48,428 bases of DNA from a virus (taxonomy: Duplodnaviria > Heunggongvirae > Uroviricota > Caudoviricetes): the IMG/VR virus record IMGVR_UViG_3300045988_145381; one strand, written 5' to 3'. Made by a program: the position numbers and the translations under genes. The notes beneath the pieces are model-generated. The model saw nothing but the letters and a program-made list of their open reading frames with translations, did not search any database and was not told where the DNA came from. Shown here piece by piece: positions 28,308-48,428 of this stretch. Position 1 is the first letter of the stretch; the number at the start of each line of letters is the position of its first letter.

Positions 28308-28314
28308 CGGGTTA

Positions 28315-28425
28315 TCTCCGGTTTAACCAGGGCGGGTATCGCTCGGTTTCGGGTATAACCTTAGGAAATTTTTTCCCACCTGTAAAGCACTTTTTATATA
28401 AATCTATAATTATATAATTCTATGA
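28315..28425 (-). promoter_or_regulatory. conserved promoter-leader element, copy 1
   Basis: Near-identical to 34827..34940 and 44347..44457; gene-direction read gives TTTACA-17bp-TAAGGT, a -10-like TATACC, a conserved leader and ggaga Shine-Dalgarno; AT-rich palindrome upstream. Confidence 0.6.
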
Positions 28426-34829: not shown

Positions 34830-34940
34830 CAGATTTCTCCGGTTTAACCAGGGCGGGTATCGCTCGGTTTCGGGTATAACCTTAGGAAATTTTTTCCCAC
34901 CTGTAAAGCACTTTTTATATAAATTATATAATTATATATT
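34827..34940 (-). promoter_or_regulatory. conserved promoter-leader element, copy 2
   Basis: Near-identical to copies 1 and 3; lies between the Q-like gene and the DUF3560-like gene. Confidence 0.6.
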
Positions 34941-35000
34941 ATTAGATTTTCGATGTTCCCGATGTCTACACACCTATCAAAAAGCTCAAAATTGACACTT

Positions 35001-42983: not shown

Positions 42984-43007
42984 AAACCGCCCGGCAAGGC
43001 GGTTTTT
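42984..43007 (+). terminator. rho-independent terminator
   Basis: aaccgcc-cggcaa-ggcggtt hairpin followed by tttt. Confidence 0.5.
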
Positions 43008-43055
43008 GTCTTTCTGGCGCTTACATTACACCACCATAAAACGATCCGTAAAGGA

Positions 43056-43328
43056 TCATTTGATCCCTTGTTCCAATTCTGCCGACACTTTAACCTTTTC
43101 CCATACAAGGGTTTGCAGCCTTAACAGAATCGCATCTTTATCAAGGTGTGAAAGATCCTTAACCATATCGTCAAACGACAGAACGCGAATGGCCATCTCA
43201 ATGACCCTCGGCGGCTCCCCCTTCTCATATCGCTTATATGTAGCCAACGATATCCCAAACTCTTCGGCTGCTCGCTCCTGCGTCCAGTTCATCCCACGAC
43301 GCCATAATTTCAATTCGTAACCCGTCAT
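43056..43328 (-). CDS. XRE-family HTH transcriptional regulator
   Basis: 90-aa ORF with HTH (...WTQERAAEEFGISLATYKRYEKG...). Confidence 0.6.
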   Translation of the reverse strand: MTGYELKLWRRGMNWTQERAAEEFGISLATYKRYEKGEPPRVIEMAIRVLSFDDMVKDLSHLDKDAILLRLQTLVWEKVKVSAELEQGIK

Positions 43329-43429
43329 TACATCCTCTACCTTTCCCTAGATATTCAATAAATTAGACATAGCCACTCACGACAAAATAAGATGTATTAA
43401 CAATCCAATCTTTAGGCTTTAGGTAAAAA

Positions 43430-43855
43430 ATGAGTTCATCTGCTTTTGTCACCGTGGTCACTGGTGTAAGTGTTTTTGTTCTAGGCCAACTCATCGTCAA
43501 AGGAGCTATTGAGCCTTACATTTCATTCAGGGAACAACTAGGGAAAATATCCAATCTGTTATTATGTAACCAAGCAAAAATAGTGAATCCTGGCTCGAAC
43601 TTAAAGCCAGAAATCATTCATGATCTAAAAGATTCCGCAGCACAGTTAATGGCGAAATATTCCACTTTACCTTTCTATATCAAAAAGTTACATATCGGCT
43701 TTCGTCTTGTTCCATCAGCCACCGAGATTCTTGGGGCAGCTCAAAATTTGAACTATATAGCGTCAATACATGAAGGTAAGACTGGGGAGAATCCATCTAA
43801 GCATCTCGAAGAGATTGGCCATATGCTCAAAATACCAACTACCTATTCAAGCTAA
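43430..43855 (+). CDS. membrane-anchored hypothetical protein
   Basis: 141-aa ORF with N-terminal TM helix (SAFVTVVTGVSVFVLGQLIV); locally AT-rich coding sequence; divergent from the HTH regulator. Confidence 0.45.
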   Translation: MSSSAFVTVVTGVSVFVLGQLIVKGAIEPYISFREQLGKISNLLLCNQAKIVNPGSNLKPEIIHDLKDSAAQLMAKYSTLPFYIKKLHIGFRLVPSATEILGAAQNLNYIASIHEGKTGENPSKHLEEIGHMLKIPTTYSS

Positions 43856-43923
43856 CCCAATGTAAGTTATCGGCTTGCCCCACAATAAGTTATCTATCTT
43901 CAAACGCCCCCTATATTAACACT

Positions 43924-43950
43924 CGCAAAGTGTCAAAATGACACTTTGCG
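43924..43950. terminator. perfect 12-bp-stem palindrome between convergent genes
   Basis: cgcaaagtgtca-aaa-tgacactttgcg. Confidence 0.45.
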
Positions 43951-43958
43951 CATTGTGT

Positions 43959-44339
43959 TTACTTAACGAGGAATAAAAATGGTTTATTGTTCGGCGGTGT
44001 AATCGGGGCTGGCTCGCTTTTGCTCATGCGATCAGTGTACCAGGCCAACTCCTTGTCAAAGTAAGCCTGATTAAAATAGGCCATGAATGTAGTTTCAAAT
44101 CCATAACGACCGCTAATACGCAGCATCTGATTGCCGTTCTCTGTTTCCAGATATACCTGGGCACGTTCCTGATTCTCCTTCAGCCAGGTTAAAGCCTCAT
44201 CGCATGAGGACACACGATACTCATCATCGTAGCAGTCATCGATGCGGCTTGAGGAAGAACGGCAAATCACGCCAACAGAACCAGCCAGGATAGTTTGAAT
44301 TTTAAGGAAAGCGTTTTTGCGGATTTTAATCATGCTCAT
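43959..44339 (-). CDS. hypothetical protein
   Basis: 126-aa ORF directly downstream of promoter-leader copy 3. Confidence 0.45.
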   Translation of the reverse strand: MSMIKIRKNAFLKIQTILAGSVGVICRSSSSRIDDCYDDEYRVSSCDEALTWLKENQERAQVYLETENGNQMLRISGRYGFETTFMAYFNQAYFDKELAWYTDRMSKSEPAPITPPNNKPFLFLVK

Positions 44340-44346
44340 CGGGTTA

Positions 44347-44457
44347 TCTCCGGTTTAACCAGGGCGGGTATCGCTCGGTTTCGGGTATAACCTTAGGAAT
44401 TTTTTTCCCACCTGTAAAGCACTTTTTATATAAATATATAATTATATAATTCTATGA
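44347..44457 (-). promoter_or_regulatory. conserved promoter-leader element, copy 3
   Basis: Near-identical to copies 1 and 2, including the upstream ttatataattctatga motif. Confidence 0.6.
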
Positions 44458-44502
44458 GCACAAAAAAGCCCCTTTGCAACAGGGGCTTATCATTCGTTCT
44501 GA

Positions 44503-44802
44503 TCAGATGTTAAACGCTATTCGTTTTCCTGTGGGAAGCTCAACATCCAGGCTTAATTTGCCTCCCATAGCTTCAACGTAACGCTTTAATGTCGCCAGCT
44601 TTAAATCATTTCCGCGCTGCTCCAGCTTTGTTACTGCTGGCTGGCTTATACCCATCGCCTCAGCAACCTGTTTTTGTGATAACTGGAGTTCTTCACGCAT
44701 CATCTGCAAGCCGACCTCAAGAATCATCTCATCTGCCATTTCTTTAATTCGCGCCTGGCTTTCCGGTGAACGGCTGGCAATCGCCTCATCTAATGTTCTC
44801 AT
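44503..44802 (-). CDS. higA: HigA-like HTH antitoxin
   Basis: 99-aa ORF with XRE-type HTH (...LSQKQVAEAMGISQPAVTKLEQ...), overlapping the stop of the upstream toxin-like gene. Confidence 0.65.
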   Translation of the reverse strand: MRTLDEAIASRSPESQARIKEMADEMILEVGLQMMREELQLSQKQVAEAMGISQPAVTKLEQRGNDLKLATLKRYVEAMGGKLSLDVELPTGKRIAFNI

Positions 44803-45155
44803 TACTTGCTCTCCAGTGTGTTCAGATGTGCTGCAAACTCATCCTCAGCTATACGCACCAGTTTTTCATAAAACCGCTTATCGTTACTTTTGTCTCCTGC
44901 ACAAAGAACGATGGCCCGGCGAATCGGATCGAACGCATAAAAGGCTCTTATCGGACGGCCAGAAAACTGAACGCGAAGCTCTTTCATATTTTTGTACCGA
45001 GAACCTTTTACGGTATCGGCATATGGCCTGGGTAACTCAGGTCCGTAAACCTGTAGCTTTTTCAAATCAGCCAAAACCTTTTCCTGAAGAGCGTCTTCTT
45101 GCTCATTTAGCCAGTCGTCAAATCGCTGGCTAAAAAGTACCGTCCACATGCTCAA
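44802..45155 (-). CDS. higB: HigB/RelE-family toxin-like protein
   Basis: 117-aa ORF upstream of and coupled to the HTH antitoxin (toxin-first order); two TATAAC-N6-GTTATA-type palindromes at 45159..45204. Confidence 0.6.
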   Translation of the reverse strand: MSMWTVLFSQRFDDWLNEQEDALQEKVLADLKKLQVYGPELPRPYADTVKGSRYKNMKELRVQFSGRPIRAFYAFDPIRRAIVLCAGDKSNDKRFYEKLVRIAEDEFAAHLNTLESK

Positions 45156-45393
45156 TCCTATAACCTGTAGTTTATATCACTAACTATATAACCTGTGAGT
45201 TATAATTTCAAGAAAAACGGGGCTATTTAACATAATGGACGTTATCGGCACCACCGGATCACCGTTCATTGTCGGATCTAAAAAATCCGCTCAAAAGATC
45301 ATGTTTTCCTGGGCGTTTTCCACCGTTTTTTATGTTGCTTATTTGTTAATGAAATCTCGTTTTCAGTTTCGCCTCATTTTCGACGCGAAAGCC

Positions 45394-45684
45394 CTATTTT
45401 TGTGACTTTACTCCTGGCATATGGACTTCCCAGCGACGAATCCCCATAGCTGCGCAAAAATCAGCCACATAATTCAATCCCGCCCATTCGCGGATACCAC
45501 CACGGGCTTTTTCAATGAAAACGGCAATCCCTTTTTTATTGAGAGCAAAAAGCCGCCAGCTTTTTGTCACTTCGTCCTGGGTAGCCACAACACAAGTGAA
45601 AGCTCCCATGCGATACAGGTCCAAGAACTCTTTGCGTGTTTTGCGTACAAGTTCCATAACAAACCTCATATTTGCATGTTTCAA
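45394..45684 (-). CDS. hypothetical protein
   Basis: 96-aa ORF coupled to the upstream HTH gene. Confidence 0.4.
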   Translation of the reverse strand: MKHANMRFVMELVRKTRKEFLDLYRMGAFTCVVATQDEVTKSWRLFALNKKGIAVFIEKARGGIREWAGLNYVADFCAAMGIRRWEVHMPGVKSQK

Positions 45685-45980
45685 ACATCTGTTTTGTTAT
45701 CAATGAAGATTAACCCTAACCCAGCGAAGTAACACAGCAGCGCCCAGGCTGCATACGGAATGCTGGATCTGGATGTGGACTCCTTTAACATCTGCCAGTT
45801 GCGAACATTGCGACTATCTTTTAAGCCAAGTTTTTTGGCCAACTGCGAGCCGCTCATTCCGGTCAGGCCAATGACTGCCCGAACTTCTCCACATGTAGGA
45901 GATTCCCATTCATCCGCTTTTTTTAAACAAGCCGGATTCAACATTTTTAAAACAGTATCTTTATCCATAACCATCTCCAT
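45681..45980 (-). CDS. HTH-domain protein with hydrophobic C-terminus
   Basis: 99-aa ORF; HTH-like ...GMSGSQLAKKLGLKDSRNVRNWQ... and C-terminal ...AAWALLCYFAGLGLIF... Confidence 0.45.
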   Translation of the reverse strand: MEMVMDKDTVLKMLNPACLKKADEWESPTCGEVRAVIGLTGMSGSQLAKKLGLKDSRNVRNWQMLKESTSRSSIPYAAWALLCYFAGLGLIFIDNKTDV

Positions 45981-46379
45981 TTATTATATCTACGATGGTA
46001 GGAAATCTTTTCCTATGTGGCAATAGAAATTTACTACATTGCGTATAAGACAAGTTTTCTATGTCTAATAGGAAATGATGTTTCTTACGTTTTATCGCGT
46101 TCTGATGGCTACTGTGTGCGTATTTATCGACGTTTATTGATAAGGCTCGCCCCTTCCTCCTGCAAAGCCCGGCCGTAGGCCTTATTTCGGCCTTATATAA
46201 ATTGATTTTGTATAGTTCGAAACGCGCCGTTTCGAAAAGGATGATCAGGCTGCTCCATGCCTCCGGCAAGTGCCGGAGGAGGTATATTTGAGCGTAGCGA
46301 CTCGAACCGGCGCGAGCTTTAGCTCGCTGCAAGGGCGAACATATTCACAGGCAAAGCCTGCGTAAGTTAAATAAAGAAA

Positions 46380-46611
46380 GTTTTAATAAAAGAAAGTGAT
46401 TTTGCATTTATTTGTTTAGTGCATCTATTATAAAAAACCATTTGCATATACATATCAAAACTGTGGATAACTTTATTAGCCGATGCCTGTAAAGGCGATA
46501 TTTTTGCTGTGTTCAGGTTTAGAGAAAATTAATTTAGATTGTTTTTTGAACAGATATTTTATTGCGACGTAGATAATCCTCCGGTAAAACCGGATTCATC
46601 ATTCAGGTGGG
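46380..46611. promoter_or_regulatory. candidate replication origin (AT-rich region with DnaA box) downstream of repA
   Basis: tgtggataa (reverse complement of TTATCCACA) at 46462..46470 within an AT-rich stretch about 140 bp beyond the repA stop. Confidence 0.45.
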
Positions 46612-47451
46612 TTAATGTTGGAGTGATTTCCAGGTCTTTCTTAGCCTGTTATAACGCTGCTCAACGAGGGAGCGTAAATATGCAAGGTCAGCACCAGGAT
46701 ACATGCCATCAGCAAATTCCTGGCTAACCTCTCTAGTGATTTGATGGCGAAGTTCGGCCTCTCCCTTTTCCTGAACAAGACGCGCAGCTCTCTCCGCTGC
46801 TTTCTGTTTTGCCTTTATCTCTCTGGCCGTCTTCCTCTGACGCCATACATTCTCCATCTGCTCCTGAATAACAATACGCTTATAATCAGCCTCCGTTATC
46901 GCTTTTTTAAGCCGTTCGCTATTCTTCGCATTGAAGTAATTAAGTTTCTGGCTAACCGCACGTCTCCATGCTTGTTCAGTAATACCAACTGTTTCCAGCA
47001 GTTGATCACGAATCTCGATTTTCGCTGGCCAATACTGTTTATTCACCCGATCCCAGCGACGTTCATAATCAATAAAACCTAACTCTTTCAGTTGCGACAA
47101 CGCCCTTGTACAGCGCGTTATAGACTTGTTCCCAGCTTCGGATACGGTAGACAGGCCGCAAAAATCAGCCAACGCCTCAGCACTGGCCAGAACCCGCTTA
47201 GAAATGATGTTTACATGGTGCAAAATCGCAGCAATCACAGCATTAATCGCCCGACGACGATGCTCGTTTATCCGGCGTTTCCGCTCTGACGGTTGATTAA
47301 CGTAGAACGCAACCTCACACGTAAGATCACGACCATTAATGCGCTGTAAAGCATCAGATAACACCAGCGGCAGCTTGTGCGTATGGTGCTTTGGAGGCTG
47401 GAACTCCGGCGACAAATTACAAACGTAAGCTGAACGTAGAGACGGCATTGG
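46612..47451 (-). CDS. repA: IncFII-type replication initiator RepA
   Basis: ORF 46612..47604 trimmed to MDRPMPSLRS...; strong resemblance to R100/R1 RepA1 as recalled (...KSITRCTRALSQLKELGFIDYE...). Confidence 0.75.
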   Translation of the reverse strand, partial: PMPSLRSAYVCNLSPEFQPPKHHTHKLPLVLSDALQRINGRDLTCEVAFYVNQPSERKRRINEHRRRAINAVIAAILHHVNIISKRVLASAEALADFCGLSTVSEAGNKSITRCTRALSQLKELGFIDYERRWDRVNKQYWPAKIEIRDQLLETVGITEQAWRRAVSQKLNYFNAKNSERLKKAITEADYKRIVIQEQMENVWRQRKTAREIKAKQKAAERAARLVQEKGEAELRHQITREVSQEFADGMYPGADLAYLRSLVEQRYNRLRKTWKSLQH

Positions 47452-47494
47452 TCTATCCATATGTTCGCTCTTGCGTCCACGGAAAACCAACGTA

Positions 47495-47576
47495 TAATGG
47501 GAGTTGTCGAGGCGCCCATGGTTAGTTGTTGGTTTTCCTTTCCGTGGATGTCGCAAGAAGCCCGCAGATTTATCTG
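47495..47576 (+). ncRNA. candidate antisense RNA to the repA leader (CopA-like)
   Basis: Plus-strand TTGCGT-16bp-TATAAT promoter at 47461..47488, long imperfect stem, terminator hairpin gcccgcagatttatctgcgggc plus ttttt at 47548..47576. Confidence 0.45.
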
Positions 47577-47775
47577 CGGGCTTTTTGTTTCCATATCTGG
47601 TCACTTTTCAACCAGACACCCACAATCATAACCACGTTACGTGGTTTTAAGAGAACTCTACCACAACACTTTCGGTCATGCACGAAGTCTCTCACTGATC
47701 GAACGATAATCCACCAGTAAAAGGATCTAAATTGGATCTCGTTTTGCGAGCATCATACTACTGGCCTAACTCCAG

Positions 47776-48330
47776 TCAATGATTCCCAGCCGGAAACCTG
47801 CGGTAAAGCGTGGATAAGGTAACATCGAAGATAATCGCTATCCGCTTACGTGAAACACCATTCGCAATAAGCCTTCCGATCTGTTCCCATTGCTCTGGTG
47901 CCAATTTTGAGCGGCGTCCTCCTATCCTGCCGTTAGCCCTTGCCACCGCCAATCCTGCACGCGTTCTTTCAATCATATTTTCCCGCTCCATCTCTGCGAC
48001 TGCACTCAGCATCGTGTAGGCAAAGCGGCCAATTGAAGTGCTAATTTTTATCCCTTCCGTAATCGAAATAAACTCAATGTTGTTTGATAAAAAATAGTTT
48101 AGTAAATCAACAAGATGAATCAGAGAACGCCCCATTCGGTCCAGCTTCCAGACAATAACCGTATCGCCCGGCCGTAACACCTTCAGTAGCTTATCAAGTC
48201 CTGGTCGTTTTGATTTAGCACCGGATATTTTATCTTCAAAAATCCGGTCACATCCTGAACTCCTGAGCGCCTCCAATTGTAATTCCAAATTCTGGTCAAA
48301 AGTTGACACCCTCGCATAACCATATTGCAT
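47776..48330 (-). CDS. serine DNA invertase (Hin/Gin/Cin/Pin family)
   Basis: 184-aa ORF MQYGYARVSTFDQNLELQLEAL...DRMGRS... with catalytic Ser motif and C-terminal HTH; start wraps to window position 30; crossover site upstream. Confidence 0.9.
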   Translation of the reverse strand: MQYGYARVSTFDQNLELQLEALRSSGCDRIFEDKISGAKSKRPGLDKLLKVLRPGDTVIVWKLDRMGRSLIHLVDLLNYFLSNNIEFISITEGIKISTSIGRFAYTMLSAVAEMERENMIERTRAGLAVARANGRIGGRRSKLAPEQWEQIGRLIANGVSRKRIAIIFDVTLSTLYRRFPAGNH

Positions 48331-48428
48331 ACTTTCTAAACCGCGATTGTTGCTAAAAGCGGGAAAAAATATCGTTCAGACGACACAGAGGCAATTCGCA
48401 AAAACCTCGGTTTACAGGAAACGGTAAA

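Follow-up and report, generated by a model that had tools for sequence, protein, structure and literature searches.

The stretch of DNA analysed here, referred to as the window, is the 48,428-nt virus record IMGVR_UViG_3300045988_145381, which represents an Escherichia phage-plasmid of about 48 kb, and the present analysis deals with two small minus-strand genes, gene 1 and gene 2, located at its positions 45,394 to 45,980. An earlier note on this DNA had described them as a coupled two-gene module, composed of a helix-turn-helix (HTH) protein with a hydrophobic tail and a partner of unassigned family, and had regarded their location as typical for accessory or addiction functions. By sequence comparison, gene 1 is assigned to the KorC family of HTH repressors, with a predicted operator in its own promoter, while gene 2 belongs to an uncharacterised phage family and occurs for the most part without gene 1. 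The position between HigBA and the replication origin was read correctly, and the coordinates of all features are collected in Table 1.

The maximal minus-strand open reading frames (ORFs), 45681..45980 (99 aa) and 45394..45684 (96 aa, TTG start), are exactly those that had been noted, and both genes are real. In comparison with their Citrobacter homologues, gene 2 displays dN 0.12 and dS 1.50 (dN/dS 0.08) and gene 1 displays dN 0.086 with saturated dS, which indicates purifying selection on both. What did not survive was the overlap and the coupling drawn from it, as the genes lie 23 nt apart when the likely starts are used. The most likely start of gene 1 is the ATG at 45968, with GGAG 6 nt upstream, and that of gene 2 the ATG at 45657, with GAGG 6 nt upstream; the resulting proteins of 95 and 87 aa have the lengths of the RefSeq annotation, and the PHROG 8351 and PHROG 4595 profiles set in at residue 5 and residue 10, respectively, of the maximal ORFs, matching these starts. 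Because the TTG start of the maximal gene 2 ORF is unlikely, the 4-nt overlap is an artefact, and translational coupling through it was rejected. Coupling by a junction-spanning hairpin was dismissed as well, since the hairpin scored a z of -1.27 against shuffled sequence and is not conserved in the Citrobacter relatives. The terminator scan returned none in the junction and one 5-pair stem within gene 1 (45737-45752), and from the terminator-free junction the co-transcription of both genes remains likely as the simplest reading.

The assignment of gene 1 is carried by its alignment with the 85-aa KorC of the IncP-1 plasmid pPH1JI, in which BLASTP gave 52% identity and 65% positives over 77 aa (E 5e-23), and which spans residues 11-82, nearly the whole protein, including the motif IPYAAWALLC.YAGLGLI. 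A tblastn search of plasmids retrieved genes annotated as 'transcriptional repressor KorC' at 5e-14, together with more distant relatives in about 3,900 plasmids. Moreover, one homologue (P0027, 52% identical) directly follows klcA (Antirestrict) and klcB, which is the korC position, in an IncP-type backbone with TrfA, KleE, KorA, IncC and KorB. The AlphaFold2 model of gene 1 (pLDDT 85) is a single small all-helical domain of the Xre-type HTH fold, so that the HTH claim is borne out. The hydrophobic C-terminus is likewise real as a matter of composition, the Kyte-Doolittle 19-residue maximum being 1.77 at PYAAWALLCYFAGLGLIFI. A membrane anchor was nevertheless rejected for this tail, as PYAAWALLCY (residues 72-81) is modelled as the last helix of the HTH domain (block pLDDT 93) and cytoplasmic KorC repressors retain the motif. 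Because the pPH1JI KorC alignment includes the same motif, the hydrophobic tail is a family signature of a cytoplasmic repressor, and it may serve as the dimer interface. Pfam, NCBIfam and PADLOC gave no usable match for gene 1; a 'mobile mystery protein A' hit (TIGR02612, 1e-4) reached 22.1 bits against a cutoff of 122.6, and the mobile mystery protein A/B system (TIGR02612 plus Fic) was excluded on this score and on the lack of a Fic domain in gene 2. The statement that no family could be assigned is thus superseded for gene 1, while it still holds for gene 2.

The family profile of gene 1 also reaches the anti-CRISPR-associated (Aca) regulators, with AcrIF24 at E 1.4e-7 and Aca3 at 2e-3 among PDB sequences, found by sequence alone. 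Of the solved structures, those closest to gene 1 are Aca1 and the anti-CRISPR-associated HTH of AcrIF24, and the best, though weak, PDB matches of an IncP KorC (L027:2452-2709) are the same two proteins; no KorC chain was present among the PDB sequence matches for gene 1 or KorC. The entries compared were 7dtr/7elm (AcrIF24), 7fa3 (Aca1) and 9vt3 (Aca3). Between IncP KorC and HTH regulators of the Aca type, homology is detectable by sequence and by fold. A full-text literature search returned no paper connecting KorC with Aca-type regulators, and searches on KorC in phage-plasmids or with anti-CRISPR, on the two RefSeq accessions and on the Yersinia phages described below gave nothing relevant.

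The predicted promoter of the gene 1-gene 2 operon encloses a perfect palindrome, TAGGAAAAGATTTCCTA, which begins 2 nt past the -35 hexamer and covers the first two positions of the -10 hexamer. The form TAGG-N9-CCTA occurs a single time in the window, where 0.27 occurrences are expected, and this occurrence is the palindrome itself. IncP DNA itself was examined for the RK2 operator form: pPH1JI has two copies of the palindrome TAGGACATTTTGTCCTA, one 55-71 nt ahead of klcA and the other 56-72 nt ahead of kleA, and in the IncP-like contig L014 TAGGGCATTATGCCCTA precedes klcA, all of these having the TAGG-N9-CCTA form. The klcA and kleA promoters are assigned to KorC control in the passage of PMC7314908 that cites Thomas 1988 and Kornacki 1990/1993. 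Gene 1 is 87% identical to its Citrobacter and 62% identical to its Enterobacter relatives, in whose promoters the flanks are unalignable and the series -35, TAGGAAAATATTTCCTA and CCAT is intact, with the layout of palindrome and TACCAT conserved; the predicted operator is a clear phylogenetic footprint there. In addition, a copy of the half-site with its flank, ATAGGAAATGAT, is placed in inverted orientation 51 nt upstream of the operator.

A search tolerant of mismatches revealed three further sites, TGGGAAAAAATTTCCTA at two of them and TGGGAAAAAAATTCCTA at the third, each of which is embedded in an element of about 115 nt that is repeated three times in the window. This element consists of an AT-rich upstream stretch, a -35 TTTACA, the palindrome, placed in the register seen at the gene 1 promoter, a -10 TAAGGT and a 47-nt leader that is identical across the three copies. 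Copy 1 drives a 126-aa gene starting at 44339, copy 2 a DUF3560 gene (355 aa, start 34829) with downstream genes, and copy 3 an 89-aa gene (start 28307), also with downstream genes; the 89-aa, DUF3560 and 126-aa genes and most of those downstream are annotated without a function. The RNA of the leader folds far better than its shuffles (z -3.86, 0/200) and partly encloses the Shine-Dalgarno (SD) sequence. The Citrobacter-type elements carry one and the same perfect palindrome, TAGGAAAATATTTCCTA, as the operator at the gene 1 promoter, at a 125-aa gene and at the DUF3560 gene. One regulator for all these operators would be the economical reading, for which the KorC homologue is the obvious candidate, and a regulon of four promoters, that of gene 1 and the three repeated ones, is predicted accordingly by the motif search.

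Table 1. Coordinates of the two genes, their predicted control sites and neighbouring features in the window
Feature	Position	Strand	Remarks
Gene 1, KorC-family HTH repressor (assigned by sequence), 95 aa	45681..45968	-	WP_000356589, PHROG 8351; maximal ORF to 45980
Gene 2, 87-aa basic (pI 9.9) alpha/beta protein	45394..45657	-	WP_000424604, PHROG 4595; maximal ORF to 45684
Predicted sigma-70 promoter, gene 1-gene 2 operon	45995..46023	-	-35 TTGCCA (46018-46023), 17-nt spacer, -10 TACCAT (45995-46000)
Predicted operator, perfect 17-bp palindrome TAGGAAAAGATTTCCTA, 7-3-7	45999..46015	.	sequence evidence
Extra operator half-site with flank (ATAGGAAATGAT), inverted	46068..46079	.	inverted repeat I7, 12 nt, 92% complementary
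Promoter-leader copy 1	44340..44455 (outer limits approximate)	-	operator TGGGAAAAAAATTCCTA 44394-44410, leader 44348-44394
Promoter-leader copy 2	34830..34945	-	operator TGGGAAAAAATTTCCTA 34883-34899, leader 34837-34883
Promoter-leader copy 3	28308..28425	-	operator TGGGAAAAAATTTCCTA 28362-28378, leader 28316-28362
Degenerate dyad copy TTCATTGATAACAAA of TTTGTTAnnAACAAA	45693..45707	-	within last codons of gene 1
HigB/HigA	44503-45155		Pfam Gp49 and HTH_3 in relatives
DnaA box TTATCCACA	46462-46470		inside 630-nt gap
IncFII-type repA	46612-47604		

Gene 2 matches the whole 87-position profile of PHROG 4595 (2.5e-47), an uncharacterised family that is weakly linked to PHROG 7844, includes gp57 of Salmonella phage SPN3UB and was matched by all 11 of 11 diverse gene 2 homologues. 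Neither Pfam, NCBIfam nor PADLOC matched gene 2, the Pfam scan of the 11 homologues returned nothing, and the gene 2 profile found nothing among PDB sequences. The best folds are eL38 and the FtsH N-domain, the viral fold matches are all uncharacterised proteins, and no toxin-like fold was seen. A HMMER search of 1.84 billion representatives gave 26 gene 2 matches at E<=1e-3, which measure about 60-110 aa apart from artefacts. Four 'homologues' from Logan assemblies (P0002, P0003, P0010 and P0029) are frameshift chimeras, assembly errors that corrupt alignments if included, and they start in an alternative frame, that of the ORF 45536-45703 (MITKQMFETCKYEV...). The prophage homologues (40-50% identity) are situated in the nin region of lambdoid phages, for example between Eaa and DinI in SPN3UB, while others follow a 210-aa gene and are convergent with tail-fibre genes.

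Among 59 unique leaders, taken from the 80 nt upstream of the gene 2 homologues (L003-L012, L025-L107; the matching stretch of the window is 45658-45707), the dyad TTTGTTAnnAACAAA is present at -30/-31 in 52 and GGTTTGT at the SD sequence (-11/-12) in 53, in contexts that are unrelated; in one subgroup the dyad lies within a CCCCCG...CGGGGG stem, the 3' arm of which is the SD sequence. On the side of gene 1, the last seven codons (45681-45701) encode a C-terminal extension, DNKTDV, in Escherichia that is absent from the Citrobacter protein (ending ...IFE) and from the IncP homologues, and this extension overlaps the degenerate leader dyad of gene 2, as though gene 1 read into an inserted gene 2 cassette.

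Such a leader raises the question of whether gene 2 could be a nucleic-acid-binding regulator, which would either control its own expression via the leader or modulate the KorC-like repressor and its regulon. The protein is basic (pI, the isoelectric point, 9.86), the dyad at -30 and the GGTTTGT at the SD sequence are kept across contexts among proteins that are 40-50% identical, and korC of plasmid RA3 likewise heads a bicistronic operon with a non-repressor, kfrC (PMC7414963). However, the fold match is generic and the model moderate, the dyad is degenerate in the window, none of the known DNA- or RNA-binding families was matched in the Pfam scans of gene 2 and its homologues, and the leader could instead bind a host factor or be a conserved translation-initiation region, so that this explanation appears rather doubtful. 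For the protein as such, the tentative first guess is that it is small and basic and binds nucleic acid, acting by way of the conserved, TTTGT-rich leader that accompanies the gene; the next guess, an inhibitor directed at a host factor or a defence system, is unlikely.

The relationship between the two genes was judged from the flanks of 93 gene 2 loci, covered up to +/-4-6 kb and less on short contigs. No KorC-like gene was present in the flanks of 86 of them, the remaining seven, which carry a gene 1 homologue, are all this same element, and no neighbour of gene 2 is conserved across the 93 loci. The slot behind gene 1 holds gene 2 and higBA in the Escherichia and Citrobacter elements, and hicAB without gene 2 and higBA in the Enterobacter elements, and in the Citrobacter-type contig L022 gene 2 is followed by unrelated FRG-domain and TPR genes. 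This is a variable accessory slot, and because each gene occurs without the other, the pair of gene 1 and gene 2 is a lineage-specific juxtaposition and not a module. In the Enterobacter contig L018 (3096-3786; also in L019 and L020), the genes behind the KorC-like gene comprise an uncalled HicA-like ORF (74 aa, ...GSHHQFKHP...) and HicB.

These observations bear directly on a toxin-antitoxin module, in which an HTH antitoxin and autorepressor would be paired with a new 87-aa toxin to stabilise the plasmid. The antitoxin-first order, the small sizes, the HTH protein with a promoter palindrome, the place beside the replicon and higBA and the weak 'mobile mystery protein A' match all agree with it. 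Yet gene 1 is a KorC homologue and is retained without gene 2 in the Enterobacter elements, the solitary occurrence of gene 2 homologues at 86 of 93 loci, with neither an HTH gene nor a conserved neighbour, would be untenable for a toxin, neither a toxin family nor a toxin fold was found for gene 2, and the element already has HigBA. On these sequence and model comparisons, the toxin-antitoxin reading is not supported and seems very improbable. The homology search and structure prediction that the earlier note had proposed place gene 1 in the KorC family, and for gene 2 they yield neither a toxin family nor a toxin-like fold. The note had named homology to a known regulator as evidence against its own proposal, and for gene 1 such homology was found. 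Of the accessory or addiction functions it had suggested, the accessory part fits gene 2, whose slot varies by lineage, whereas addiction is not supported, given the KorC homology, the lack of a toxin match and a pairing that is not obligate.

The explanation preferred here is a KorC-like autorepressor accompanied by an independently mobile cargo gene, which is considered probable as an account of the whole locus. The gene 1 protein, most likely as a dimer, would bind TAGGAAAAGATTTCCTA between its own -35 and -10 hexamers and thereby autoregulate the gene 1-gene 2 transcript, and it would probably also repress the three repeated promoters at about 28.4, 34.9 and 44.4 kb. Upon entry into a repressor-free cell, a burst of expression would be followed by shut-down to a low steady state, as in IncP and IncU plasmids. 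Gene 2, on this view, would be a phage accessory gene that moves independently, came to rest in the variable slot and is expressed there together with the repressor.

Several points weigh against this explanation. The gene 1 promoter is a call of a consensus scan with 9 of 12 positions, and binding and repression at the palindrome by the gene 1 protein are deduced solely from homology and the position of the motif. Autoregulation is not universal in the family, in that korCp of RA3 is weak, constitutive and not autoregulated (PMC7414963). There are no klcA/klcB or kle genes next to gene 1, the neighbours of which are repA with the origin and higBA. The remote operators in Escherichia differ from that of gene 1 in the half-site, TGGGAAA or TGGGAAT in place of TAGGAAA, as well as in the centre, and another HTH repressor of the element, in which several other HTH genes are present, could bind them. 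As for gene 2, its model has a pLDDT of 72 from a 6-sequence alignment, with generic fold matches.

The same burst upon entry would be expected of an anti-defence operon of the acr-aca type, in which an Aca-like repressor silences gene 2, its effector, after the initial expression. This alternative is in line with the control of the anti-restriction gene klcA by IncP KorC (PMC7314908), with the promoter-overlapping palindromes of Aca proteins, which can regulate several operons (PMC13551039), and with a small gene 2 found in accessory hot spots such as the nin region, the moron position and the plasmid accessory slot. The gene order is, however, reversed, since known acr genes usually precede aca and only the origin precedes gene 1; gene 2 found no counterpart among the known Acr and anti-defence proteins with solved structures, its homologues are almost never beside an Aca- or KorC-like gene, and its basic pI of 9.9 is unlike that of DNA-mimic inhibitors. 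An operon of this type is accordingly an improbable explanation. A bolder combination, in which the KorC-like gene 1 protein would preside as master repressor over an entry-burst regulon of four promoters in a tailed phage-plasmid and gene 2 would be a new effector for anti-defence or host takeover, is still less likely; if true, the entry-burst reading would amount to the kil-kor logic of plasmids inside a phage, run by a homologue of anti-CRISPR-associated proteins.

The element that carries the locus is widespread. About 57 Escherichia plasmids, non-mobilizable and 47-51 kb in size, match the region 45200-46200 at 99.7-100% identity, one of them being that of E. coli ATCC 25922 (48,488 bp), and the Yersinia phages vB_YpM_39, 41 and 44 match it at 99.3-99.7%; at >=98.7% identity, the plasmid carriers number 59 (Escherichia/Klebsiella), in addition to the three Yersinia phages. 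The ATCC 25922 record combines phage genes (tail, baseplate, capsid, portal and terminase) with those for RepA, ParA, a DNA invertase and HigBA, and the RepA of the relatives is of the IncFII type (PF02387). A pSLy3-type identity was discarded, as the pSLy3 group belongs to the SSU5 supergroup of about 100 kb.

The proximity to this replicon invites the view that the two genes are a replication or copy-number accessory pair serving the adjacent IncFII-type origin; they adjoin the origin region, and gene 1 keeps its position in all three lineages. The IncP relatives of gene 1, however, regulate kil/kle transcription and not replication, the gene 2 homologues mostly reside in integrated prophages without a plasmid replicon, and the operator is located in the gene 1 promoter and not in the origin, all of which renders a replication role highly improbable.

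Some further features surround the locus. Between the AT-rich part of the origin with the DnaA box and the gene 1 promoter, the stretch 46150-46350 is GC-rich and full of hairpins, with CCTCCGGCAAGTGCCGGAGG (46260-46279), the palindrome TTCGAAACGGCGCGTTTCGAA and a 13-nt inverted repeat (46223-46235 / 46302-46314); it might serve for priming or as a terminator with an insulating role. No Rfam family reached its gathering score in 43000-48428; a sub-threshold match to Thr_leader (34.6 bits against a gathering score of 55, E 1e-3) falls at 47475-47590 on the plus strand, running antisense to repA at its 5' end, and is probably due not to a Thr leader but to the structured region through which an IncFII-type replicon is controlled by antisense RNA. 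On the other side, two near-identical 18-nt repeats (TATAACCTGTAGTTTATA / TATAACCTGTGAGTTATA) within 45159-45211, positioned at the -10 end of the predicted promoter of higBA (TTGAAA-17-TATAGT) and shortly downstream of it, are probably HigA operators. The 238-nt gap between gene 2 and higB also contains, on the opposite strand, an unannotated 56-aa ORF with a hydrophobic stretch (45235-45405, plus strand), which may be spurious.

The locus combines an uncharacterised cargo gene with a regulator whose kind is known but whose host element is new. A gene annotated as 'hypothetical' on a phage-plasmid of at least 59 Escherichia/Klebsiella plasmids, including that of ATCC 25922, is given a family, a predicted operator and a testable regulon, and one toxin-antitoxin candidate is removed as probably false. 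Meanwhile, PHROG 4595, a widely scattered phage accessory family with a conserved leader of its own, is flagged for functional screens.

Among the known systems, type II toxin-antitoxin loci such as HigBA, HipBA and MqsRA resemble the locus in having two small adjacent plasmid genes, one of which encodes an Xre-type HTH protein with a promoter palindrome, but they differ in that gene 2 has neither toxin homology nor a toxin fold, the pairing is not conserved and the HTH protein comes from a regulator family. For PHROG 4595, which includes SPN3UB gp57, the difference is one of location, most members being found in the nin region of prophages or next to genes for tail fibres instead of following a repressor gene. 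A connection with AcrIE10, a Klebsiella plasmid protein, was discarded because it is of the ribbon-helix-helix type.

The closest likeness is with KorC. The KorC proteins of RK2/RP4, pPH1JI and RA3 share with gene 1 a length of about 85-95 aa, a single HTH, 52% identity and the C-terminal IPYAAWALLC.(Y/F)AGLGLI; a 17-bp TAGG-N9-CCTA palindrome is placed about 55-70 nt before the regulated start codon, several promoters per element bear an operator (a predicted one in the window), and korC may head a two-gene operon, as korC-kfrC does in RA3 (PMC7414963), where KorC controls five promoters. In RK2/RP4, KorC is a global repressor, and klcA is induced about 120-220-fold on entry (PMC7314908). The differences are that the host here is a tailed phage-plasmid with an IncFII-type replicon and not a conjugative plasmid, that the inner operator bases are AAA in place of GCA/ACA, and that the recognition helix reads SRNVRNWQ and not DRTIRRWV. 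Gene 1 thus agrees with KorC in sequence, fold and operator form, and departs from it in its predicted target genes and in lacking the klcA-klcB-korC or kle context, which is a feature of the surroundings and not of the protein itself.

With the Aca regulators the agreement is of another kind. The C-terminal HTH of AcrIF24 together with Aca1 and Aca3 are the nearest solved structures and are detectable by sequence, and gene 1 has in common with the Aca regulators a short HTH whose last helix carries (P/S)(Y/F)..W..L. Negative autoregulation of a small-gene operon through a promoter-overlapping palindrome, as described for Aca proteins (PMC9001735, PMC13551039), is predicted for gene 1, and the repeated element of the window resembles the layout reported for the Aca1 and Aca2 operons, in which the operator over the promoter is followed by a structured 5' untranslated region (PMC13551039). 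In contrast with these operons, that of gene 1 has no known acr gene and places the regulator first and not last, and gene 1, at low identity to Aca1 and Aca3, is much nearer to KorC than to any named Aca. It is thus an HTH protein related to a named Aca family, in an operon that holds no verified anti-CRISPR gene. KorC and the Aca-type regulators both control genes needed on entering a new cell, and their homology suggests that one regulator lineage serves circuits of the 'burst then shut off' type in plasmids and in phages.

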